Assembly: GCA_963786955.1 (NCBI GenBank)
Contig: CAWBAT010000008.1
Span: 256,001 to 320,000 of the forward strand
Direction: 5' to 3'
DNA length: 64,000 bases
DNA from: an uncultured Acidimicrobiia bacterium
GTDB lineage: Bacteria; Acidobacteriota; Terriglobia; Versatilivoradales; Versatilivoraceae
In this document: positions 3,247-37,478 of the stretch, in pieces
How the letters are laid out: each line of letters opens with the position of its first letter
Position numbering within the stretch: position 1 is the first letter of the stretch
The notes under the pieces: model-generated
What the model was told of the DNA's origin: nothing
Database searches by the model: none
What the model saw: the letters and a program-made list of their open reading frames with translations, nothing else
Position numbers and translations under genes: made by a program

Positions 3247-4153
3247 GTGGCAGGAAACGTTTCATTGAATATCCATCGATCGTCACGATCTGTACAGCAG
3301 GCAACCCATGAACCCGCCTGGGTGCGCCGTTTGATGATTGGAACAGCCGTGGCGTTCCTGATTCTCTTTATATTCTTGCCTCTGGCGATGGTGTTTCATT
3401 TCGGCGCTTGAAAAAGGAGTGGGAGTGTATCTGCAGGCGATCAGTGAACCGGACGCCCTGTCTGCTATTTACCTGACTCTCTTGACGGCTGCGATTGCCG
3501 TGACCCTTAATTTGATGTTCGGGATTGCTGCCTCGTGGGCGATTGCCAAATTTCATTTTGTGGGCAAGAGTCTCTTGATCACTTTGATTGACCTTCCCTT
3601 TTCCGTCTCTCCCGTGGTTTCAGGGCTAATCTATGTGCTGATTTTCGGCTTGCAGGGTTTTCTGGGTCCCTGGCTGGACGAACATGACATCAAGATTATC
3701 TTTGCGGTGCCTGGTATTGTCCTGGCAACTATTTTTGTTACGTTTCCCTTTGTTGCCCGCGAATTAATTCCCTTGATGCAAGCTCAAGGCAGCGAGGAAG
3801 AAGAAGCCGCCTTGACGCTAGGGGCCAGCGGTTGGCAGACTTTCTACCGGGTCACTTTGCCGAATATCAAATGGGGTTTGTTGTATGGGGTTATCTTATG
3901 TAATGCTCGTGCCATGGGGGAGTTTGGCGCAGTATCCGTCGTTTCCGGACATATCCGCGGCTTGACCAATACGATGCCTCTTTATATTGAAATTCTTTAC
4001 AATGAATACCAATTCGTGGCGGCATTTGCAGTCGCTTCCTTATTAGCTTTGTTGGCTCTAGTCACTTTGGGGATTAAGAGTTTTGTCGAGTGGAGAGTAC
4101 GCCAGCAATTGGCACAATTAGAGGCAGACTCGTCAAGTGGCGGAAAAGCATGA
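3247..4153 (+). CDS. cysW: Sulfate ABC transporter permease CysW (frameshifted near 5' end)
   Basis: [48 protein letters not shown] at 3247 follows GGAGAG. Confidence 0.92.
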
Positions 4154-9214: not shown

Positions 9215-9652
9215 CTGTCGGTACCGTCTGTGGTAGCGGGCGGGTCAACCCCTGTCAGTGCCCCCGGGCTGTCGGTACCGTCTGCGTTAGCGGGCGGGTC
9301 AACTCCTGTCAGTGCCCCCCGTGCTGTCGGTACCGCCTGCGTTAGCGGGCGGGTCAATCGTCATCAGCGCTACCTCGGGCTGTCGGTACCGCCTGCGGTA
9401 GCGGGCGGGTCAATCGTCATCAGCGCTACCTCGGGCTGTCGGTACCGTCTGTGGTAGCGGGCGGGTCAACTCCTGTCAGTGCCCCCCGTGCTGTCGGTAC
9501 CGCCTGCGGTAGCGGGCGGGTCAATCGTCATCAGCGCTACCTCGGGCTGTCGGTACCGTCTGTGGTAGCGGGCGGGTCAACTCCTGTCAGTGCCCCCCGT
9601 GCTGTCGGTACCGCCTGCGTTAGCGGGCGGGTCAATCGTCATCAGCGCTACC
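9215..9652 (+). repeat. Tandem REP array, 8 units of ~55 bp
   Basis: 34-bp core CTGTCGGTACCG(C/T)CTG(C/T)G(G/T)TAGCGGGCGGGTCAA repeated 8 times, with two linker types in the order A A B B A B A B. Confidence 0.95.
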
Positions 9653-9659
9653 TATCTCC

Positions 9660-10169
9660 TCAGTCAAACTCCGGCAGGTTATCGCCTTGCCCGTTGATGA
9701 CATAATCAATGGCGCGCTCGATGCTTCTCTCATTCCATAAATATCGCTTGCTGCCCTTGTCCGCCCAAGGAGTCTGTTGTGAAAGCCAATGGCCGTCCTG
9801 GCGCAATTGCCTCGTAGCGTTTGCCTTGAAAGCATTCAGGGCGTGCTCAGGTCGTGCTTTTCCGATAGCGACAACTACGTGCACGTGGTTTGTGCGTACG
9901 TTAATCGCATGCATGACCCAGTTGCGTAAAGTACAGGTTTCGCGCACAGCTGTCTCGACCGATTCGCGTTGGGCCGCATTCAAGGACACAGTTTCGCATT
10001 TGAGGGCCTGTGCATTATGTCGACGCCAGCGTTCGTTGGGTGGAATGGTCGGGGCCTGATATTGGTTGTGGAAACGGTCCACCGACCCCCGCCCGTCGCC
10101 ATGCAACCAGGTGCCGTAACAACGGAACGTGATGAGAAAGGCTAAGGGGAGGTTGGTGTTGTTCCACAT
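9660..10169 (-). CDS. REP-associated tyrosine transposase (RAYT, Y1 HUH family)
   Basis: N-terminal FLITFRCYG, HUH motif TNHVHVVV, C-terminal helix AIDYVINGQ with the putative catalytic Tyr; flanked by REP arrays. Confidence 0.85.
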   Translation of the reverse strand: MWNNTNLPLAFLITFRCYGTWLHGDGRGSVDRFHNQYQAPTIPPNERWRRHNAQALKCETVSLNAAQRESVETAVRETCTLRNWVMHAINVRTNHVHVVVAIGKARPEHALNAFKANATRQLRQDGHWLSQQTPWADKGSKRYLWNERSIERAIDYVINGQGDNLPEFD

Positions 10170-10189
10170 CTCTACAGTTCGGCAACACG

Positions 10190-10322
10190 GACCCGCCCGC
10201 TACCGCAAGCGGTACTGACATAGCGACAGATCGGCGACGCGACCCGCCCGCTACCGCAAGCGGTACTGACATAGCGACAGATCGGCGACCGCGACCCGCC
10301 CGCTACCGCAGGCGGTACTGAC
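10190..10322 (-). repeat. REP array, 3 units, inverted relative to 9215-9652
   Basis: GACCCGCCCGCTACCGCA(A/G)GCGGTACTGAC x3, the reverse complement of the same core, with a third linker type ATAGCGACAGATCGGCGAC. Confidence 0.95.
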
Positions 10323-10374: not shown

Positions 10375-12977
10375 TTATTGAGACTTTTTGATTTCATCGA
10401 GCAGATCCTGTGCGACCTTCTTGTCGATCGTCGCCAGCTTTCTGTACACCTGCATTGCCTGCTCCTTCTGGCCCAATCCGAGAAACGTGTGGCCGAGACC
10501 GTACTGAAGGTACGCCTCCTGGGGCTTAGCTTGGAGTAAGCGCTGATACATCATCAGCGCTTGTTGATACGCAGCGGTAGCCTTAGCACCCTTCTTTAGC
10601 TCTTTAAAAACGTCACCCATCATGCGGTAAACCGCCGCTGCCGTACTCGGTTCCGGCTTGAGCAGAAGGACGCGTCGATAAACGGGCAAAGCAGCCTCCG
10701 GATAACCCATGTCGCTGGTAATATTGGCGTACCCGAGGAGGTACTCTGGATCGTCCTTGTCGCTGGGGAAAGTTGCGTCGATTTGTTCGGCGAGCCCCTT
10801 GGCTCTGGCGCTATCGATTTTCTGTAACGTCTGCTGAACGGCGATGGCTTGCTCTTTCATCCCCATCTCAACGTAGGCTAAGCCGAGATTCGAATGGTAG
10901 ACACCTACACTGGGCTTGAGTCGAATCGCCTCCTTATACGCATCCACGGCCTCCGAAAATTGATCAAGTTCGTAATAGGCAAGTCCTGTTTCATTGAGAG
11001 TGCGAGCATCGTCGGGTCTGAGCCTGAGTGACTCACGATAGGCTTTTAGACCGTTTTCGGGCTGTTTCAGTCCAAAGAAATAGACTTCGCCGATCCAATA
11101 CTGCGTTTCGGCATCCTTGGGATTCAGACGAACTGCCTCTTGCAGCGTCGCCAGCGCGTTCTGATACTGGTCCGCAAGGTGGTAGGTCCAGCCGAGGCCA
11201 AACGTGGTATTCGCATCGTTTGGCCTCAGTCGCAGCGACTCTTTCAAGGCGGCGATTGCGTTCGGATACTGCTTCAATTCTCGATAACTGGAACCGAGCC
11301 ACGCATGGGTACTCGCCAGCGTCGGTACATCAGGCTTCAGCGTTATGGCCTTCTGGAACGACTCGACCGCTTTAGCGTACTCCTTCGCGTCGTAATACTT
11401 CTGCCCCTCATTGGAGAAATAAGCCGCAGTGCCCGGTGCGGTGCTCGCCACAGGCGAATTGACCGCGACCGGCTTATTGATTTCCGTTAGCAGCTTCTGA
11501 GCGTAGTCTTTATCAAGAGCGGCCAGCTTCCGGTAAACCCCCATCGCCTCGTCCTTCTTGCCAAGTTTTGCGTAGCTAAGGCTCAGCAAGTAAAGACTGG
11601 CCTGATCGTCCGGTTTTAGTCGAATTGCTTGCTGGAAGGCTGTCAACGCTTCTGGATATCTCCTCTGCACAAAAGTTGCATTCCCAAGCATAAAGTAGGC
11701 GTCGTAGTCGCCCGGCTTGAGCCGGAGCGCCTCTCGAGCTTCGGCTTCGGCGTTCTCGAAGGGCTTCAAATCTTTAGAATGCGAAGGTCCTAAAGCAAGT
11801 TCACTCCCTTGGCCCTGATAAGCAGTTGCGAGTCGCAGATGGACTTCGGCGTTGTTCGGCACCATCCGAATCACTTGCTTGTACGCCTCGATGGCTTCCG
11901 GATACTGCTTGAGCCGAGAATAAGCAATACCCAAGTCCATATACGCCGCACCCGAAGGAACGATCGAGTTAGATTTCTTTAGGTGTTCGATGGCTCGGGC
12001 ATAGTCCTTGGCTTCAAGAAGAGCTCTGCCTTTCTTATATTCCGCGGTCGATGCCTGCACGTCCGCGGCGCTCCCTTGCGCACGAGGCAGCTGAGACGGT
12101 GGCTGCGTCACGGGTTGATTGATCAAATCGGAGAGCGCCTGAACCAGCCCATCGACTCCTGACTGCGCCGCTGGCTGTCCATTGTTGGCTGCTGGCGGCT
12201 TTACCCGGATTGGATCAGCCTCCTGGCGCGCCTGGCGACGCGCGTTGTCGCCTCCAACAATCTTGTCAAATTCGGCATTAAGCGTTGGCGAGAGAAAGGT
12301 TTTGAACGTCTGAATTCCCTCCACGCCAAAGTTGGTGTCCCAGCGACCGTAGCGATACGGCGTCTGGTCACTAAACTTTGCCGATGTTCCGGCTGGGCCC
12401 GGGAAAGACTTGTCCGCCGCCTGGGCAACATTGTAATGGGCAACGTCGTACGCCCCGATAATGCGGCTCTCGTCTGGAGTGAAGCCTCTGAACTCGCGAC
12501 GGCCCGACAAAGTCTTGATGATTTCAATGAGCTGATAAAATGTACCGATCTGGCGCAGTGCTGTCTCCCGCGGATCTGGCGTTTCCATCGCTCGCATCAC
12601 ACGCTCCACGGAAGGCATCTCACTGAGATACGGCGGATTCAGCGCCTGCCCCGGTTGGTTGGCGCGGCAGCCGGTTTCCCGCTTGGCGCGCTCTGGACCT
12701 TGCAGACTTTCAACCAGCCATCCATCTGGCTGCGGATATTGTAGCGCTCGACGATGAGTTGACCGTTCTTCTCTTCTCGCCAGAAGCAGACCTCACCGCG
12801 AGCGTTAGACTGGCATCGCGTCACGATGTTGTCGGTCCCATCCGGACAGTGATAGGGCACGTTGAACTGCAGAGCTTCCTGCGCGGCCACAATCGAGGTA
12901 CAGATCACGACTCCCAGTAAGACGGCAAGGATCTTTCGCCAGGATAAAATACGATTCGAAGTCAACATTGGACACAC
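10375..12977 (-). CDS. Secreted TPR-repeat protein (N-terminus in ORF 12639..12977, frameshifted)
   Basis: Many TPR motifs (AYMDLGIAYSRLKQYPEAIEAYKQVIRMVP). The upstream ORF has a signal peptide and a Cys-containing domain. Confidence 0.85.
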
Positions 12978-14558: not shown

Positions 14559-17500
14559 CTATTGACTGCTGCCGATAAAAGCCCCATCGCCCGTCCGTTG
14601 CCCTGGACCGGCGCCATCATTGATCACCGCATAAGTGACGAACGGGTTGTTGCCCGCTGTACGGCGCACGCGGGCGTAGCCTTGTTGTACCCCTCCCGGG
14701 GCGCTATTCAGAATCGTCCCGATCTGAGTCCAGCCATGAGCCTTGAGGACAATGGGCTCCATGGTTTTCTTTAACGTTCCTGTCGCCCCATCATAAAGAT
14801 CGATGACAAAGGTGTCATCGTTGGCATCGGTTTCGCCGGTGTTTACAATCGCCAGATTGGTCCGGTTTTCAGAATTCTGCTGCAATCCGAACACCCAGGC
14901 GCTCGTGGTCGAAGCCTGGCCATACGGCACCGCAGTATAAAAGAGTCCAAAACGGCCGCCCACGGTTCCTCCTGCCGCGGAAGTCCGTGCCCCTAAGACC
15001 ACTCCGCTGATATCTCCGCCCGTGGCCGTGGCGAACAAGAGCTCCGGCAATCGTGGTGCCCGCCGCTCCAATGCCAGCTACCGCATTGCTTCTCATGTAG
15101 GCAAAAATGTCCGGAATGATCTGCTGCCGCCCGGCTGGGATGTTAATACTAAAGTGAGCCGTCTTATCCGCAGTCGTAATGGCATCGGCCACAAAGCTGA
15201 AGTTAACAGTGCGAGCCTGGCTGGAAAAGTTGGCCAAAACCACCTCACTGATGAAGGTGGTGGTCTGAACTATGACCGGCAAAGTCAATCCAGTCACGGC
15301 TGACGTGCTGGCGGGTTGAGGAGTCAGAAATGAACCATCCGAATTGACCTGATCATTGACGACACCGTAGGCGTAGTAAGGGGCGGTGCCGCTGGTCCGC
15401 TCCACTTTCACATATCCGTTCGTCAAGGAGAGGCCATTCGATGCGAGCACGCCGCTGATCTGATTAAAGGCTCCTGGCTCCAGGACAATCAGAGGCAAGA
15501 CTTGGGAGAAGGAACTGTTGCCATCGAAGACAGTGACTCGCAAGGTAATGCTCCCGGCCCCTGCAGCTCCCGCGTTTTGGAAAGCCACATTGGAACGGTC
15601 GGTGGTATTCTGCCGCAATCCACAGATATATGAAGTAGTGGTTAGAGCCGCGCTGTATGGTGTTCGCGGATTCAGCCAGCCCGGCGCGGTTTAGTTGAAT
15701 TCCCACCACTGTCTTTCCCTTGGCTGATAGCCGCCGCGCCGCCGTTGGAGACGGTTATGCCTGGATAGGCCAGCCCGGAGCGGCCTATTAGGTTCCCACC
15801 GGTATCCTTGACCAGTGTCGTGGTTCGGGCGGTGATGCTGGCATCTGAAGCCAAACTGAGATTAGAAAAATGAGCTCGCAAGGTCCCAACCCTGCTTCCC
15901 GTGTCCGGTATCGAGAGCCCTTTGGTCTTCAGATAGTCAATGGCATTCGAAAACACAGACTGGCCTGGAGGAAGGGTTGTCGATGCGGTTCCAGTGCCTC
16001 CGCCAGCGGTCGCTGTGTAACTCAGATCAACGTTAGCCGTGGAGGTTCCCAGGATGGTGAAGGTCAGCTCCGTGGTAAAGAACGAGCCACCGACTCCACT
16101 GCTGGAAAGCACGACGGGCACGAACAGGTCAGTTGAAACGCCACCGCCGCCGCCACCCCCGCCTCCACCGCCTGAGGTTGAGATCGTGAAGTTGCCGTTG
16201 CTGGTATCGGAAACCGTTCCAGCGGCGTCGCTAACGCGTATTTTAACGGTGGTGGAAGCTGAATTGGGGACCGTCCAACTGTAGCTGCCCGTGTTCGACG
16301 TGGAAGCGACGATAGTCGAGTAACTGGTTCCGCCGTCGGTGGAAATTTCGATTTTGACGTTGCTAACCGTTCCGGTAGTCGTCCAGGTAATGTTATGGCT
16401 GGACCCGACCACCCAATTTTCACCGCCATTGGGAGAACTCACTGTAACGGTTGCAGAGCCTCCACCGCCCCCTCCTCCACCACCTCCACCACCGCCGGTG
16501 CCTGTGTAGATAAAGATGCCCTGGTTTGCTGCATACACAGTCGCGTGATCGGCATGGCTCACGTCGATTTCAGTAGCAGAGAATGGCAATCCGGACTGAG
16601 CGATGGTCCATGTCCCCGCAGCATCAGAAGTCCGCAAGACGAATCCGTCTACGATCGCAAAGAGAACAGAGGGTGTCGTGGGATCAATTGCTATGTTGTT
16701 GGCGCTGATCAAAAACGGAAAGGGACAATTGAGTGGGCTGCCCGCATAGTGGATGTTTCCGAAGCCTGGGTCTGAATAATTCTTGATCAGCTGCTCGATT
16801 CCGGAAGTGGTGTTTTGCCAGAAGCCGCTATCGTCGAGTTTGTATATACCTCCGTTGGCTGTGGAAGAAGCGACCAAAGAAGCATAGACATTGGAAGAAT
16901 CGATAGGGTCGACGGCAAGGTCGAAAACACCTAGCGTATTGGGCAATCCGGCTCCCAAAGGACTCCAACTCAATCCACTGTTGGTGCTCTTGTAGATCAA
17001 GGCCGGGACCGAGACTCCCGAGTATAAGCCTGCATAGAGAACTGCCGGGACCTTAGGGTCGACAGCTAGCGTATTAACGACCGCACCACCACCCAAAGGC
17101 AACCCTGTAACGGAAGAATTCCAGGTCGAGCCAGCATCGGTGCTGTGGTAGATCTGGGTATAGGCTACAGCATAGATCCCATTGGGATCCACCGGGTCAG
17201 GCACGAGCACCGTGGGAGCAATAAATCCAAAATTGTCCGCGGGGGTTGTAGTGAGCGTCCAACTGCTGCCCCCATTGGTGGATTTGTAAATCCCAGGCAA
17301 TGAAAACGTAAAGCCTCCACCTAAATCCTGCACCGTGGCATTCTGAATCGACACGTAAAGGATCCGATTACCCACCTGGCTCATCGCCAATCCTCTTACC
17401 ATCAGGCCCTGCAAGCCTGCATTTTTTGCGGTCCAGTTGTTTCCACCGTCGGTACTCTGAAAAACTCCCTCTCCAAACAAACCGGCGAAAATCGTGTTCT

Positions 17501-31660: not shown

Positions 31661-33014
31661 ATGACCGTACGCAAGTTGAATTCCTGGCGTAGGCTCGCAG
31701 GGTTTATATTATTCGGTGTCGTTGGAATATGTGTCGGCGCTCCGCGGAGAGGATACGCCTACTCAGAAATTGGTGACGGCCCCGAACTTCTACCATGACG
31801 TGCTCCCCATTCTTAACGAGCACTGTCAGCGATGTCACCGCCCCGGCGAAGTGGCTCCGATGCCCTTCGTAACCTATGAACAGACGCGACCCTGGGCTCG
31901 TGCGATCCAAAAAGCAGTCCTTTCGAAGCACATGCCACCCTGGTTTGCGGACCCACGCTTTGGTCGTTTTGCAAATGATCCGTCGCTCTCCCCGGAGGAA
32001 ATTGCGAAGTTATCTCTCTGGGCAGATACAAACGCCCCACGCGGCGACCCTCACGACGCTCCGCCCACGCAACACTGGGTTAAAGGCTGGACTATCCCCA
32101 AACAGCCGGACCTGGTAATCCAAATGCCCAAGCCAATAATGATTCCGGCGCACGGCGAGATTGAATATACCTATGAAATTGTGCCCACCGGTTTAACTGA
32201 AGACAAGTGGGTGCAAATATCGGAACTCCGACCCTCGAGTCGCCAGCATGTGCATCATGCCGTGGTTTACATTCGTCCTCCGGGATCCCGCTGGTTGCGA
32301 CGTGTTCCCGTCGGCCTCCCTTTCACGGCCTCGAGTTTGGCTGATGAGCAGGATCGACGCGACGCCCACGGAACGGACAGCGACATGCTCCTGGTGTATG
32401 CGCCCGGCAGCTTGCCGGATCACCTGCCCAATGGCATGGCGAAATTTATTCCTCGCGGCTCAGATCTCGTGTTTCAGATGCATTACACCACGAATGGTCG
32501 ACGAGATTCGGACCAGACGAGCCTCGGCATCATCTTTGCAAAGGAGCCGCCGAAACAAAGAGTATTGATGTTGCAATTGACGAATTCTCATTTCACAATT
32601 CCTCCCGGCGTCGACGATTATCGTGTGGAATCGCGTGGGACGTTACCCAATGATGCCACTCTGCTTAGCTTTCTACCCCACATGCATTTGCGTGGCAAAC
32701 GATTCGAATACAACATCATTCATCCGGACGGAAATGTTGAAACGCTGTTGCGAGTCAACTACCACTTTCACTGGCAATTGAGCTACCGGCTCGCCGAACC
32801 AAGGTTTCTCAAGGCCGGCACAATACTTCAAGCCGTCGCCTGGTATGACAATTCAAAGAAGAATCCTCATAATCCGGATCCAAAGAGTGCGGTCACCTGG
32901 GGCGATCAGACTTACGATGAGATGATGGTTGGGTTTTTCGATGTCGCTGTGCCGGCAGCTCTTGGACAAGTGGCAATACTTTATTCGACCCTCAGTCGGG
33001 CACTAGAAAACTGA
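31661..33014 (+). CDS. Cytochrome c (CxxCH) fused to a copper type II monooxygenase-like domain
   Basis: CQRCH heme motif, HVHH, MHY, PHMHLRGK, DEMM. Signal peptide from ATG 31661, with a frameshift. Confidence 0.75.
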
Positions 33015-33174
33015 CAGTGCGCCTATAAAGTGAACTTAAGACCAAGTGCCAAATAGGAGGTTGGGAACCCTCGCGGTAGCTGGTTACGCATTGTCGAACT
33101 TGAACTCGACGGAAATGCCATCCGATTCCCACACTTGCTCCAACCCCGCAAGCTGATAGTTTGCCCCATTGTTT

Positions 33175-33613
33175 TCTCACGGAGACACGGAGGCACGGAG
33201 AACGCTTTGTAGGTCTCCATTGATGATTCGAGTAATTCCTTCCTTCATCAAGGCCTCTCCAAAATTCAAAAGGTATCCCAACTTCAAACCGGTCAAACGG
33301 AGGTAGGTTAGCAGTTGCTTTTTATGGGCTGGATTGACCCTCTCCACCGATTTCAGTTCCACGATCACTTTCCCCTCCACCACCAGATCGGCTCGAAATC
33401 CTTCTTCGAACTGATCATCCTCAAATTCGATCGGCACTGCAACTTGGCGTTGGACGGAGAGCCCTCGCTTTTCCAGTTGCCGGGCTAACGTCACTTCGTA
33501 CACCGTTTCCAGCAATCCAGGCCCGAGGGCTTGATGCAGATGGATTGCACAATCAACAATTACAGTCCCGATTTCGTTTTCATTCATCTCCGTGTCTCAG
33601 TGTCTCCGTGAGA
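33175..33613. mobile_element. 27-bp inverted repeats exactly bounding the GxxExxY gene
   Basis: TCTCACGGAGACACGGAGGCACGGAGA (33175-33201) against TCTCCGTGTCTCAGTGTCTCCGTGAGA (33587-33613): 25/27 complementary. Confidence 0.6.
33177..33587 (-). CDS. GxxExxY protein (PD-(D/E)XK nuclease fold)
   Basis: LGPGLLETVYE, FRADLVVEGKVIVELKSV, QLLTYLRLTG, GYLLNFG. Confidence 0.93.
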   Translation of the reverse strand: MNENEIGTVIVDCAIHLHQALGPGLLETVYEVTLARQLEKRGLSVQRQVAVPIEFEDDQFEEGFRADLVVEGKVIVELKSVERVNPAHKKQLLTYLRLTGLKLGYLLNFGEALMKEGITRIINGDLQSVLRASVSP

Positions 33614-33788
33614 GATATGGCTTTGGCTGAACCAATGATTAACAGGCAATATTGCCTTGATAATACGACAATAATTGGATTTTCGGGCAGTTTTGCCCTT
33701 TACCCATTATCAACCAAATTGTGTGCCTATTCTGGTACAACATGCTATGGCTGTCCTCTACAATTGTCAACGGAACAAACTCCTGGAG

Positions 33789-34973
33789 TTATAGAACTGG
33801 TGGTTCTTCGAACCAATCGGTTCGGTCCAACGAAACTATAGGCTCGTCGTCCTTACCATCCAGCGTATCCCGCCAATGTTGGAGCTGAGCGACTTTAGCG
33901 GGGATGGCCTGTTTGGAGGCACACACACGTTGGAAGGGAGTCTGAGGCGAATCATAGATCCGTTTTAGTTTCGAGCCGACTCGAATCTTGCGTCGCAATT
34001 TCACCGAGGGGAGGAACAAGTTTTGAAACAACCGCAGGGGGTGGGAGTAGAGATCGTTGAGAGCCTCCAAGGCGGTGGGAGAATCATAACGCTGGTAGCC
34101 TAACAGGCGACGCACGTGAGTCCAGTTCTTTTGCTCGATGTGAGCATTGTCATCTTTCTTGTAAGGACGGCCACGAGTGAATTGGATCTCGAGGGCCTGA
34201 CAATAGCGATAGAGATGAGCATTGATAAATTCCGAGCCGTTGTCGGAGTCAATGCCCAGCAGTTTAAACGGTAACGCTTGACGGATGGTTTCCATGGCGC
34301 AACGAACTCCTTCTTGCCCTTTGCCTAGCACGGCACGCGTCTCGACCCAGGTGGTGTGGATGTCGGTGAGGTTCAGCGAATGACAGCAGTCGCCGGAGGC
34401 AGCGCTGCCGGCATGCGAGACCAGATCGACTTCGGTGAAGCCGGGTTGGTGAACGTCCCAGTTGTCGGTCTTGATGGGAATGTGATGCTTTAACAACGTG
34501 CCCGGTTTGGTCCGGCCGTAGATCCTTTTTTTGAGTTGGCGCTTTTTGGGGCGGAGCCGATAATCGATGGTGCGGGGACTGAGGCAGAGCAGTTGCTGTT
34601 CCAGCCGGGGCGTCAAGTGAAAACGCTTCCGAGCCCAGGGCATCCACACCGGCAGCAGCGCCTTTAGACGGACCGACCAGGGATAGCCGGCCGCTTCCCA
34701 GATGGCACTGAGCACCGAGATTACCTGAGGCCCATAGCTCGCACGCCGTTTGCGGCGCCGCGGTGGCGACGGCCTGGGCGGAGGACCGTTGAGCAAGCGA
34801 ATGGCGTATTTGCGATGGTACCCACAATTGAGGCAGAACTCGTCGAGGATTGATTGCTTCGATCTCGACGACGCGGTGGAATATCTGTGATGAATCTTTC
34901 TCAAGTATTCCCATCTTGACTGTCGACTCATGATGTAACCCCTTTCAATTAGGGTTTTATTGATAACAATCAT
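33789..34973 (-). mobile_element. Transposase with an integrase-core (rve) DDE domain, ISNCY-like; C-terminus possibly truncated
   Basis: ILDEFCLNCGYHRKYAIRLL, PGFTEVDLVSH, IDSDNGSEFIN, FTRGRPYKKDDNAHIEQKN. Likely start ATG at 34931. Confidence 0.85.
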
Positions 34974-35198
34974 GTAGAACTGACATCATATTGAACCCCC
35001 CGTTATATTGTTGGCCTTCTGGCATTGTGTTAAGCTTTCGTGATGTCGGTTAACGGAAAGAAGTTAGCCATCGTGTACTCAATCCAAAAAATTCCGGGAT
35101 CCAATTTTGCCGCGGACTAAGCCCATTGCTGAAACCTGCTCTCGGGTTCAGCAGAACCAGCCTAATTAATAGGCAGTCCCTAAACTCCAAGGAGGTGA

Positions 35199-37478
35199 AT
35201 GATGGGCGCACCCTTATCACGTCGCAACTTCTTGTGTTCCACTGCAGGGGGTATGGGCTTCGCTTGGGGCGGTGTGAATGTTCTGGGCGGCCCAAGCCTT
35301 GTTTCTGTTGGCGCTCAGAACTTGCGAGAAACTCCAGCCGGAAAAGAATTCATATACGGTGCCGCATTTTTCCGCCCACCGAATCCACCTCGAGCCCTAC
35401 GCCGGGAGATGCTGAAAACGATTGCCCAGGAGCACAAATTCAACATCATCCGCATTTATTTAGCCTGGGTCTATTGCAACCCTCAACCCGACAAGTTCAA
35501 CTTTGAAGAATTGAATGAAGTCATGAGTTATTGTGACGAATTCGGATTGAAAGTGCTCATGGGCGTCATTACCGAAGAAGCTCCCTATTGGCTGGAGCAA
35601 GCGCATCCGGAAGCCCGCTATGTGGATGCTAAAGGGAATGCTCAGCGGCTCGGGGACAGCAGTAATAATGTGAGCGGAGGATGGCCAGGAATGTGTCTGG
35701 ATTGGGAACCGGTACGCCAGGCGGCTGGCCGCTTCATCCGCGAAATGGCCAAAGTGGTGAGTCAACACCCCTCCATGTATGCCTACGATTGCTGGAACGA
35801 ACCGCACATTGAACCGGCCTGGGCACGGAATATTTGGGCTACTCCGCAAGAGAGGCTCTATTGTTACTGTGATCGAACCATTGCGGAGTTTCAACATTGG
35901 CTCGAACAGCACTACGGCACCCTCGATCAGTTGAACGAAGCCTGGGTGCGCCAATACCCGAATTGGAAGGCGATTGATCCGCCACGATTCATGTCCACTT
36001 ATTTAGACTGGCTGGATTGGCGGCGTTTCATCATTGAGCGCAGCACCGATGAAATGCGATTCCGTGCAGGTAATGTGAGAGCGGTGGATTCCAAGCATAT
36101 AGTTGAAGGCCACGCCGGCAGGAAGCATCCGCTCGACCCGGTCACCGAAGATGGCGTAAACGACTGGCGATTGGCGGAGTTGGTCGATGTCTGGGGCTTT
36201 TCTCATTTTCCTCGATGGGAAAGCTTGCCCGTCTTCTATGGGGCGGCCGTCATGGATCTGGCGCGATCCTGTTCCGGAAAAAAAGAATTCTGGATGACCG
36301 AATTACAGGGCGGTCATGGAAGCAACGGACTGTGGCGTAGTCCGCAGATGAGGGCTCAAGACATACGGCTCTGGAACTGGTTGGCGGTAGCGGCAGGCGC
36401 TAAAGGGATCATCTATTGGGCTTATCACGCTGAAGCTACGGGATCGGAAGCCACCGGATTTGGCCTGGTGGCTCGAGATGGTTCGGCAACCGAGCGGGTG
36501 CTTGAAGCGGCTGAAAATCACCGGCTCATTCAGATGTATTGGGATGTGATCCAAAGCCACCGACCCAAACCGGAGGTTGCCATTCTTGCGGATGAAGACA
36601 ACTTCATTTTGACGTATGCAATGAGTGGAACCGAAGTTCCCGCAACGGAGTCAATCCGCGGCTACTACAAGGCAATGTGGAGTAGTGATTTGTGGGTTGA
36701 TTTTATTGAGCCGAGAAGCCTGGGCAAAGCCAATTACAAAGTTCTCATTGTCCCTTGGCATCTGGTCGGAAAGAAGGAGACCTGTGAGGCTCTGGTTCGT
36801 TTTGTCGAAGCGGGCGGAACGCTCATTCTCGAGACAGCTTTTGGTATGTTTGATGAGCGCTGTTTTTACAACCCCGTCATCCCTCCATACGGGCTGGCGG
36901 AGTCTTTTGGCTACCGCGAAAAGGAAAGCTACTACGTGAATAATGGCGCCGTGACAAACCCTCTCTCTGTCCCTAAAAACCTTCCGCCATCGGACAAGGT
37001 ATACTATGAACCAGAAATCCAATTCTTGCATCCCATCACGACGAAAGTTAAGGCCCACACCTTCTTGACTCCCATTGTATTGAAGACAGCAACGCCAATG
37101 GGCAATTATGATGGGAAGACGGTGGCTGCCACAAAAAAAATAGGGAAGGGGGAGGTCTATTATTTCGGGACAAACCTGGGAGCCAGCATCGCAGGCGGTG
37201 ACAATAGAGGTATTGATTTATTGCAAGCCATCCTCGCACGGGTCGTTTCTCCGCCGGTTCGCGGCAACACGCTTCGACCCAGGCTCATTGAGGGCACTGG
37301 GCGCAGTCTGCTCGTCGTTGTCAACGACGCGGTAGAGGATCAAACCGGGACAATCCAACTTCCTTCGCAGTACCATCGGGCCAAAGACATTCATACCCAA
37401 CGTCCCGTTCAGATCGACCAACATGCCATCCGGCTCACTTTGCCCTATCAAAGCATTTCGATCTTACTGCTCGAGTAA
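35199..37478 (+). CDS. GH42-like beta-galactosidase with a Tat signal
   Basis: SRRNFL twin-arginine motif, WNEP acid/base, WMTELQ nucleophile, CYC, trimerisation-like C-terminal domain. Confidence 0.85.
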   Translation: MMGAPLSRRNFLCSTAGGMGFAWGGVNVLGGPSLVSVGAQNLRETPAGKEFIYGAAFFRPPNPPRALRREMLKTIAQEHKFNIIRIYLAWVYCNPQPDKFNFEELNEVMSYCDEFGLKVLMGVITEEAPYWLEQAHPEARYVDAKGNAQRLGDSSNNVSGGWPGMCLDWEPVRQAAGRFIREMAKVVSQHPSMYAYDCWNEPHIEPAWARNIWATPQERLYCYCDRTIAEFQHWLEQHYGTLDQLNEAWVRQYPNWKAIDPPRFMSTYLDWLDWRRFIIERSTDEMRFRAGNVRAVDSKHIVEGHAGRKHPLDPVTEDGVNDWRLAELVDVWGFSHFPRWESLPVFYGAAVMDLARSCSGKKEFWMTELQGGHGSNGLWRSPQMRAQDIRLWNWLAVAAGAKGIIYWAYHAEATGSEATGFGLVARDGSATERVLEAAENHRLIQMYWDVIQSHRPKPEVAILADEDNFILTYAMSGTEVPATESIRGYYKAMWSSDLWVDFIEPRSLGKANYKVLIVPWHLVGKKETCEALVRFVEAGGTLILETAFGMFDERCFYNPVIPPYGLAESFGYREKESYYVNNGAVTNPLSVPKNLPPSDKVYYEPEIQFLHPITTKVKAHTFLTPIVLKTATPMGNYDGKTVAATKKIGKGEVYYFGTNLGASIAGGDNRGIDLLQAILARVVSPPVRGNTLRPRLIEGTGRSLLVVVNDAVEDQTGTIQLPSQYHRAKDIHTQRPVQIDQHAIRLTLPYQSISILLLE

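Follow-up and report, generated by a model that had tools for sequence, protein, structure and literature searches.

On the minus strand of the stretch of DNA shown above, which is 64,000 nucleotides long and hereafter called the window, lies a small gene for a protein of the GxxExxY family that is enclosed by two inverted arms. Arm, gene and arm together, for which the term cassette is used here, measure 439 bp and consist of the following parts, with arm sequences read on the gene strand:

33175..33613, minus strand: the whole cassette, composed of arm, open reading frame (ORF) and arm, 439 bp
33587..33613, minus strand: 5' arm, a TCTCAC cap followed by CACGGAGA, CACTGAGA and CACGGAG, the last base being the A of the ATG
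33210..33587, minus strand: GxxExxY/PD-(D/E)XK core, residues 1 to 126, supported by Pfam and NCBIfam matches, a protein alignment (A1, described below), an AlphaFold2 (AF2) model and Foldseek
33180..33209, minus strand: read-through tail, residues 127 to 136 (QSVLRASVSP), which is translated spacer plus arm
33175..33201, minus strand: 3' arm, reverse-complement units followed by GTGAGA, with the TGA stop codon (33177 to 33179) inside the cap

The initial annotation of this DNA had described a gene bracketed by two 27-bp inverted repeats with 25 of 27 positions complementary, forming a 439-bp unit made up of nothing but repeat, gene and repeat, and both descriptions hold. A repeat search returned two arms of 27 nt each (33175-33201 and 33587-33613) that are complementary at 25 of 27 positions (93%) and lie 385 nt apart, the GxxExxY ORF of 136 aa extends from 33177 to 33587 on the minus strand, and the unit at 33175-33613 contains only these elements. 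Each arm had been divided into three subunits of about 9 bp; the number of three stands and the period is corrected to 8 bp, the arm being a TCTCAC cap followed by three 8-bp CACGGAGR units (CACGGAGA/CACGGAGG/CACGGAGA). As had been claimed, one arm runs into the start codon, since the A of the ATG is also the final base of the 5' arm, and the other arm holds the stop codon, albeit only because the window copy runs 10 codons beyond the usual end: the closest relatives (P0005-P0014, 86-91% identity) are 126 aa long and end with ...INGDL. In the AF2 model residues 126-136 of the window protein have a predicted local distance difference test score (pLDDT) below 50.

The inverted repeat is real and did not arise by chance. 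Searched with up to two mismatches, CACGGAGNCACGGAG has four matches in the 64 kb, all of them located in the two arms, compared with a mean of 0.48 in shuffled sequences, of which none of 100 reached four. Moreover, the inverted-repeat score, defined as the best ungapped inverted repeat between the 150-nt flanks of a gene with +1 for a match and -2 for a mismatch, is 21 for the window cassette, and the threshold of 14 is reached at only one of 395 random places of the same geometry. Chance and assembly artefact as explanations are ruled out because the same architecture recurs in independent assemblies. The base composition of the cassette (GC fraction 0.49 versus 0.51-0.56 around it) shows no clear anomaly, and no Rfam family matches between 32000 and 35500 at E<=1.

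The protein core matches PF13366 PDDEXK_3 (E 5e-41, 140.1 bits, cutoff 22), which is the only Pfam match, as well as TIGR04256 GxxExxY (E 3e-41, 140.3 bits, cutoff 35), and a transposase domain was found in the ORF with neither the Pfam nor the NCBIfam profiles. The residues G24, E27, Y30, D67, E77 and K79 are present in the window protein and invariant in the 46 sequences of alignment A1; D67, E77, K79 and their companions would be catalytic residues according to the motif of the superfamily. The AF2 model (pLDDT 74.3, predicted template modelling score, pTM, 0.74) has the order helix-helix-strands-helix as found in PD-(D/E)XK enzymes, and the best Foldseek match among structures of the Protein Data Bank (PDB) is Cas4 (4ic1, E 8.8e-4, TMq 0.52), followed by a second Cas4 (4r5q), TT1808, lambda exonuclease and Hjc resolvases with TM values of 0.3-0.5, and at rank 36 by the catalytic domain of I-Bth0305I (3r3p, E 0.11). 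The PD-(D/E)XK nuclease fold named in the initial annotation is thus recovered by model and structure matches alike, at modest scores, and the fold class is therefore to be taken as generic. A sequence search of PDB chains gave no relative with a solved structure, the sole match being a centrosomal protein (E 0.38), the PADLOC defence models gave only weak Cas4-like matches (E 0.0026 and 0.0053), and PHROGs gave a weak, Cas-associated match (E 1.3e-4). In the available text of PMC3424549 the function of PDDEXK_3 is listed as 'Unknown' and the family is described as having undergone multiple transfers, with mixed clades, and in that of PMC8934634 GxxExxY appears as an incidental annotation.

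Is the bracket a peculiarity of this one locus? A protein search with the window protein yielded 8000 candidates, all significant. The best 120 matches have identities of 76-100% and lengths that form classes of 126, 136 and 158 aa, and the C-terminal tails and N-terminal extensions of these relatives (LRVSVTL, PLSPRDSVRG...SQRHKGTEG, SQSHKGTEM) are translated repeats of the same kind as in the window. Alignment A1 comprises 46 of the 120 proteins and was used for a genome scan in which at least 601 stretches matched and 591 were confirmed; the best 80, with 53-80% identity, are designated L001-L080 and span 16 named phyla according to record titles and NCBI ranks. Together with the window this gives 81 genes, of which three with short or N-filled flanks were dropped, leaving 78. 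An inverted-repeat score of at least 14 was found for 57 of these 78 homologues, compared with the one in 395 random positions drawn with the same geometry from the same loci. Among the 57 the median arm is 27 nt long with a median complementarity of 93%, three units per arm is the modal number (30/57), and the cap contains TCAC in 34 cases and TCGC in 15. In the flanks the caps read TCTCAC or TCTCGC, and 8-nt periodic repeats stand beside almost every gene, their units having the form C-R-C-N-N-A-G-N with CGCAAAG as the commonest version, besides CGCAGAG, CACGGAG, CGCCAAG, CGCGAAG, CGCGGAG, CACAAAG and CGCAACG. Period-8 tracts number 189 in 1.15 Mb, versus 57 with period 7 and 49 with period 9, and 113 of the 189 lie within 150 nt of the gene.

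The trait extends to more distant homologues on plasmids. Three of the five found in PLSDB (33-54% identity) reach the threshold, with scores of 19 in Sphingomonas, 16 in Bernardetia and 21 in Bacteroides finegoldii, where the unit has a 9-bp period, and the Treponema homologue scores 11. The homologue on a Fusobacteria plasmid (L084, 1380-1960) has a 25-nt direct repeat (cagatttaatccgtgtacctat...) and no inverted repeat; a TCCGTG core is common to this repeat and the window arms. Bracketing of the gene by a periodic inverted repeat is a family trait: the flanks of homologues, which the initial annotation had singled out as the place to look, carry such repeats in 57 of 78 genome and 3 of 5 plasmid cases.

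Two polarities are distinguished among the bracketed cassettes. In type 1, to which 39 of the 57 belong, the purine-type arm with its cap lies upstream of the gene as in the window, and in 13 of the 39 the arm ends at the start codon. In type 2 the polarity is opposite and the caps adjoin the gene. Two cassettes with CGCAACG units, left unclassified by the pattern used, resemble type 1. The length of the element is 439 bp in the window, L001, L003, L014 and L043 and 442-449 bp in many others.

Gene and arms belong together in evolution. The labels of the loci were mapped on a tree of the 81 proteins, computed quickly by maximum likelihood from 124 columns and with many forks unresolved, and the observed numbers of changes were compared with those in 1000 shuffles:

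Unit class: 57 rows, 23 changes observed, shuffle mean 30.3, 0/1000 shuffles as low as observed
CAC versus CGC units: 57 rows, 5 changes observed, shuffle mean 10.3, 0/1000
Type 1 versus type 2: 55 rows, 11 changes observed, shuffle mean 14.1, 33/1000
Phylum: 76 rows, 32 changes observed (minimum 15), shuffle mean 50.4, 0/1000

The repeat unit thus co-varies with the protein phylogeny, as the initial annotation had anticipated for an element of this kind, the observed count being reached in none of the 1000 shuffles. Since kin share labels, such counts indicate linkage and not recognition. Single phyla hold several unit classes, Verrucomicrobiota at least seven. The clade that includes the window (window, L001-L007, L009 and L015) covers Sumerlaeota, Planctomycetota, Verrucomicrobiota and KSB1, and CACGGAG/CACAGAG is found in every member with classified arms. 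Within this clade the degree of conservation was compared for six members, that is 15 pairs. Median identity is 0.81 (0.70-0.93) in the 27 nt that precede the ATG, versus 0.44 (0.36-0.52) at third codon positions and 0.33 in the adjoining 27 nt beyond the arm. Conservation of the arms resembles that of first and second codon positions, and they are under selection. The gene itself is split by a stop codon or frameshift in only 4 of 81 cases (L003, L053, L064, L073); in L003 the gene is split and the 26-nt arms are nevertheless perfectly complementary.

The distribution over phyla bears on an alternative according to which the gene is a resident, vertically inherited housekeeping or repair nuclease gene and the arms are operators or a bidirectional terminator without any mobility. 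Such a gene would account for the non-random distribution of the phylum label on the protein tree (32 changes versus 50.4 in shuffles), for synonymous sites that are near saturation between relatives, for the single copy in the window and for a syntenic site in the four loci L054, L058, L072 and L076. However, the same 32 changes, set against a minimum of 15, mean that phyla are interleaved on the tree and that the family is scattered across them, and the available text of PMC3424549 likewise describes a PDDEXK_3 phylogeny with multiple transfers and mixed clades. Moreover, a terminator scan finds nothing at the arms, cassettes stand inside otherwise contiguous operons that have empty sites elsewhere, and deletion derivatives and hairpin arrays exist, as detailed in the following. 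We consider a resident gene improbable. The transfers between the phyla of the window clade are old.

Insertion sites are seen in two cassettes other than that of the window, for which empty sites, another expectation of the initial annotation, were found, in both cases in another species or genus. The cassette of Sphingomonas parapaucimobilis separates fabD from fabG and is co-oriented with both, and in S. paeninsulae the gap between the two genes measures about 31 nt. In B. finegoldii the cassette follows directly after the stop codon of radA and precedes the gene for a flavin adenine dinucleotide (FAD)-dependent protein, and in Parabacteroides distasonis the gap between radA and the FAD gene is 13 nt and contains no cassette. 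The radA site of Phocaeicola massiliensis holds an unrelated 215-aa ORF and is uninformative as filled or empty site. Targeting of tRNA genes was considered and rejected because among 60 of 80 loci scanned only L008 has a tRNA beside the cassette.

Arm pairs without an ORF are common, with loops of 9-124 nt, and form arrays in L031, L056, L066, L044 and L027. How such derivatives can arise is illustrated by L018, where a tandem array between 2200 and 3230 comprises a complete element of 443 bp and four minis, each about 107 bp long, with a spacer of about 40 nt recurring between the units. In every mini, positions 1-37 of the complete element are fused to positions 373-441, indicating one common internal deletion of 335 bp. 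Among ORF-less hairpins with loops of 25-250 nt, 3 of 20 match the local gene. For tracts far from the gene, the unit class agrees with that of the local gene in 9 of 24 cases versus 4.1 expected, a modest signal that 32 of 2000 shuffles reach. Two further arrangements were observed. In L001 a type-1 CACGGAG arm pair (16632-17011) encloses 334 nt without a clean ORF, 6 kb away from the L001 cassette, and may be a decayed cassette copy. In L006 arms of the same unit type (10517-12931) bracket or separate two larger ORFs, of 491 aa and 223 aa, that follow the cassette downstream.

Taken together, it is well supported that gene and arms form a linked and selected cassette that is inserted and leaves ORF-less derivatives behind. 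To this extent the interpretation given in the initial annotation, a selfish unit in which the protein spreads its own repeat, is upheld, the inserted gene-plus-repeat unit with derivatives being the part that is supported.

How is a gene transcribed that is packed between two arms? The minimal type-1 element leaves no room for a promoter and transcription therefore must enter via the 5' arm. Judged from crude ORF calls, 58 of 70 loci have a co-oriented upstream neighbour, compared with a background of 505 co-oriented pairs among 781 pairs of adjacent genes in the same loci, and 47 of 72 have a co-oriented downstream neighbour; 34 cassettes are co-oriented with both neighbours and 7 are opposite to both. 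In the window the upstream ORF of 394 aa is co-oriented at a distance of 202 nt and the downstream neighbour is convergent. These orientations also bear on the idea that the cassette is an inverton, whose inverted repeats would permit inversion of the promoter-less gene with respect to a promoter outside and thereby serve as a phase-variable on/off switch. The bracketing of exactly one promoter-less ORF would fit such a switch, as would the occurrence of both orientations relative to the neighbours in the numbers just given (34 versus 7). However, no recombinase gene is consistently adjacent, the neighbours varying by locus, and inversion leaves the ORF-less arrays, the deletion minis and the type-2 polarity unexplained. 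It would be very surprising if the cassette were an inverton.

Since the transcript must hold both arms, the stem can be expected to form in RNA as well. In the predicted minimum free energy (MFE) fold of the RNA from 33165 to 33625 the arms indeed pair as closing stem (-164.7 kcal/mol, z -4.9, equalled by 0 of 100 shuffles). Such a structure recalls the intervening sequences (IVSs) of 23S rRNA. As described in the available text of PMC4990558, the IVS of Coxiella is 428-444 nt long, carries a PF05635 ORF in the loop of a 28-bp terminal stem and undergoes excision by RNase III, and IVSs in general are sporadic and horizontally transferred, the ORF having been proposed to serve mobility and the IVS to originate from a mobile element. 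With the 23S rRNA IVSs of Coxiella, Leptospira and Salmonella the cassette shares the size of about 430-445 nt, a stem of about 28 bp with a small ORF in the loop, the formation of a closing stem by its 27-nt arms in the predicted fold, and a sporadic occurrence combined with horizontal transfer. In contrast to these IVSs, the cassette lies between protein genes and not in rRNA, consistent with the lack of an Rfam match in 32000-35500, its ORF belongs to another family, and its arms are periodic and conserved in sequence.

PF05635 genes, which encode the four-helix-bundle IVS protein, are themselves found with comparable arms outside rRNA. In L008 such a gene (3420-3779) has arms with a period of 7 and lies 300 nt from the cassette of the same locus. 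Of six PF05635 genes examined, the one in L008 and five in plasmid records (L089-L093), four have inverted arms with scores of 14-25 and short-period units, all outside rRNA, and one has periodic repeats without a clear inverted repeat. In Pseudanabaena (L090) the gene is located between cas6 and cas4 with long direct arrays of AAAGCTA/AAAGCCA heptamers on both sides.

It could be imagined that the cassette is an IVS-like RNA element, whose arms matter only in RNA, where they would pair over about 27 bp and so enclose the ORF within the read-through transcript of the host. Cutting of this stem by RNase III would release or stabilise the cassette mRNA or control its translation and the host operon would keep working, the nuclease would have a task that does not involve the arms, and its spread would need no more than the usual horizontal transfer and recombination. 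Several observations are in line with this proposal: 1) size and shape match the Coxiella IVS as described in PMC4990558; 2) the predicted MFE fold closes the arms with a z-score of -4.9; 3) the minimal form lacks a promoter and is biased towards co-orientation with the upstream gene; 4) in RNA the ORF is enclosed equally well by arms of either type; 5) four of six PF05635 genes outside rRNA have analogous periodic brackets. On the other hand, an RNA stem under selection should be enriched in G.U pairs, but arm mismatches on the transcribed strand comprise 28 G.U versus 29 A.C and 56 other pairs, and the lack of a wobble excess therefore favours constraint at the level of DNA over constraint at the level of RNA. 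In addition, a plain stem for RNase III needs neither the conserved arm sequence (0.81 versus 0.44 at third positions) nor the conserved 8-bp period, the arrays of ORF-less hairpins and the co-variation of unit and protein are left unexplained, and there is no match to an Rfam family. An element acting in RNA only is in our opinion unlikely, though far from negligible.

The reading that we favour, to which we would give an even chance of being correct, is that the 439-bp unit belongs to a widely distributed family of selfish mini-cassettes of the form inverted repeat-gene-inverted repeat, which resemble the repetitive extragenic palindromic (REP) sequences with their REP-associated tyrosine transposases (RAYTs) on the one hand and IVSs on the other and are members of neither group. 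The cassette would consist of a promoter-less gene for a small PD-(D/E)XK nuclease with intact predicted catalytic residues, packed inside a roughly 27-bp stem whose two arms each comprise a TCTC(A/G)C cap and about three 8-bp units. Gene and arms would be inherited and transferred jointly, with the arms held by selection. Cassettes would land between host genes, be transcribed from the upstream host gene and give rise to ORF-less hairpins, some of which would be minis formed by internal deletion. The nuclease may act on the DNA of its own arms, either on the 8-bp repeat sites or on an extruded hairpin or cruciform, and this action would copy or maintain the cassette and its ORF-less derivatives. 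The logic would be that of RAYTs and their REPs or REPINs (paired REPs), or of homing nucleases and their targets, but with an unrelated enzyme acting on arms that are periodic and not self-palindromic. The stem in the RNA would probably be cut by RNase III as in the rRNA IVSs, either as a side effect or as added insulation of the host operon.

A number of observations weigh against this reading. The first group concerns mobility. The 64-kb window holds neither a second arm copy nor a second GxxExxY ORF. As already remarked in the initial annotation, no target-site duplication is visible beside the arms, which were inspected by eye in 41 type-1-like elements. The empty sites come from other species or genera, and with flanks of filled and empty sites that are only 70-77% identical the exact junctions are unreadable. 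Synonymous sites are close to saturated even when the nearest genome relatives are compared, so that none of the transfers can be shown to be recent. In four Acidobacteriota loci of type 2 (L054 4786-5157, L058 10001-10372, L072 10001-10369 and L076 5043-5408, approximate coordinates) the cassette lies between the same two flanking genes, indicating vertical inheritance in that clade. The initial annotation had named a syntenic and vertically inherited locus as an argument against its proposal, and this situation is encountered in one acidobacterial clade; other cassettes are wedged between conserved genes. The second group concerns the repeats. A clear inverted repeat is lacking in 21 of the 78 homologues, 17 of the 20 loops of ORF-less hairpins contain no remnant of the gene, and the oriented period-8 tracts more than 500 nt away from a gene number 32 and occur in only 15 of 81 loci. 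Moreover, 16 of the 57 cassettes are of type 2. In the 11 loci inspected for their layout, type 2 looks like a gene between hairpins or half hairpins and not like a unit with outward ends: an ORF-less hairpin with a loop of about 70-130 nt stands on each side of the gene in L074, L076, L078, L040 and L052, and in L054, L058, L070 and L075 two inward-facing arms stand alone. With its cap beside the gene, type 2 is a misfit for a simple model of transposon ends. Finally, the link between protein and arms, by which the nuclease would recognise and spread its own repeat, is a reasonable inference.

How does the cassette compare with known mobile systems? The comparison with REP/REPIN-RAYT systems, for which the definitions were taken from the available text of PMC3337134, 10.1101/2022.05.22.493013 and PMC5581495, had already been made in the initial annotation and is justified for the layout: a single small gene of nuclease type is flanked by short repeats in inverted orientation, ORF-less, hairpin-forming and REPIN-like paired repeats occur nearby and may be dispersed, there is no target-site duplication, and the gene stays at a constant position in some clades. 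Yet the enzyme of the cassette is of the PD-(D/E)XK type and not an HUH/Y1 transposase, the arms are tandem 8-bp units behind a cap without self-complementarity and abut the start and stop codons, and the family is scattered across phyla and not mostly vertical. REPs are self-palindromic and carry a GTAG motif. For want of a Y1 transposase and of self-palindromic arms, the cassette is not a member of the REP/RAYT group, and the analogy of layout is fair.

With insertion sequences (ISs) and miniature inverted-repeat transposable elements the cassette has in common terminal inverted repeats, a single ORF, miniatures formed by internal deletion (L018) and intergenic insertion. It differs by the absence of a DDE, HUH or serine/tyrosine transposase and of a target-site duplication, by the type-2 polarity, and by the lack of an identical multi-copy set in the window. 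Homing endonucleases of the PD-(D/E)XK type are similar in that a small nuclease gene sits between conserved host genes with empty sites elsewhere; in contrast, the host sites of the cassettes vary by locus and the fold match is generic. Since host sites differ between loci, any homing target would need to be the repeat or hairpin itself. Short tandemly repeated repetitive sequences (STRRs) are intergenic heptamers of cyanobacteria. They resemble the arms as short-period tandem intergenic repeats, and arrays of this kind flank the PF05635 gene of Pseudanabaena L090; the units of the cassette differ in being 8 bp long and set as inverted arms around a gene. Literature tying STRRs to these genes was not found, nor was a description of the association of gene and bracket in the open-access literature.

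As a tentative extension, possible rather than probable, the cassettes with GxxExxY and those with PF05635 genes could be two cargo types of one undescribed class of mobile elements with short-period inverted arms as hallmark. The 23S IVSs would then be members that landed in rRNA helices, and the GxxExxY nuclease would copy the element by cutting the hairpin or cruciform of its own arms, a lifestyle like that of REP/RAYT that would have been invented independently. Proteins of the GxxExxY/PDDEXK_3 family abound, and a conserved and co-varying DNA partner provides the first concrete candidate substrate for them. If the favoured reading of a selfish mini-cassette is correct, there would be a nuclease-based counterpart to REP/RAYT and a possible origin of the rRNA IVSs, a question that according to the available text of PMC4990558 dates back to the 1990s. 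In addition, the 8-bp periodic arms explain odd annotated C-terminal tails such as LRASVSP and SQRHKGTEG and mark insertions within operons.

The window also contains a true REP/RAYT-like unit. A Y1_Tnp ORF of 169 aa (9660-10169, minus strand, E 5.5e-7) with an HVHVVV stretch is bracketed by a 31-nt inverted repeat, and five REP cores lie within 9395-10309 and none elsewhere in the 64 kb. Since the REP core of the window is thus confined to the flanks of the RAYT, the absence of dispersed CACGGAG arms from the window is weak evidence. The same REP core was seen as inverted pairs in two Acidobacteriota loci (L058 and L072), a faint pointer to the phylum of the window.

Two features lie upstream of the cassette and outside it:

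33789..34973, minus strand: upstream neighbour, the 394-aa ORF mentioned above, with weak rve/IS481-like similarity
33742..33770, minus strand: promoter-like TTGACA-17-TAGCAT, about 155 nt upstream of the ATG

The similarity of the neighbour amounts to an E value of 1.2e-4 for rve, below the cutoff, and of 5.8e-10 for IS481 with 39 bits versus a cutoff of 224, and no convincing IS-type inverted repeats were found around it. The promoter-like site is a weak lead only; a scan with the promoter consensus gave six sites in the region versus 1.6 expected.

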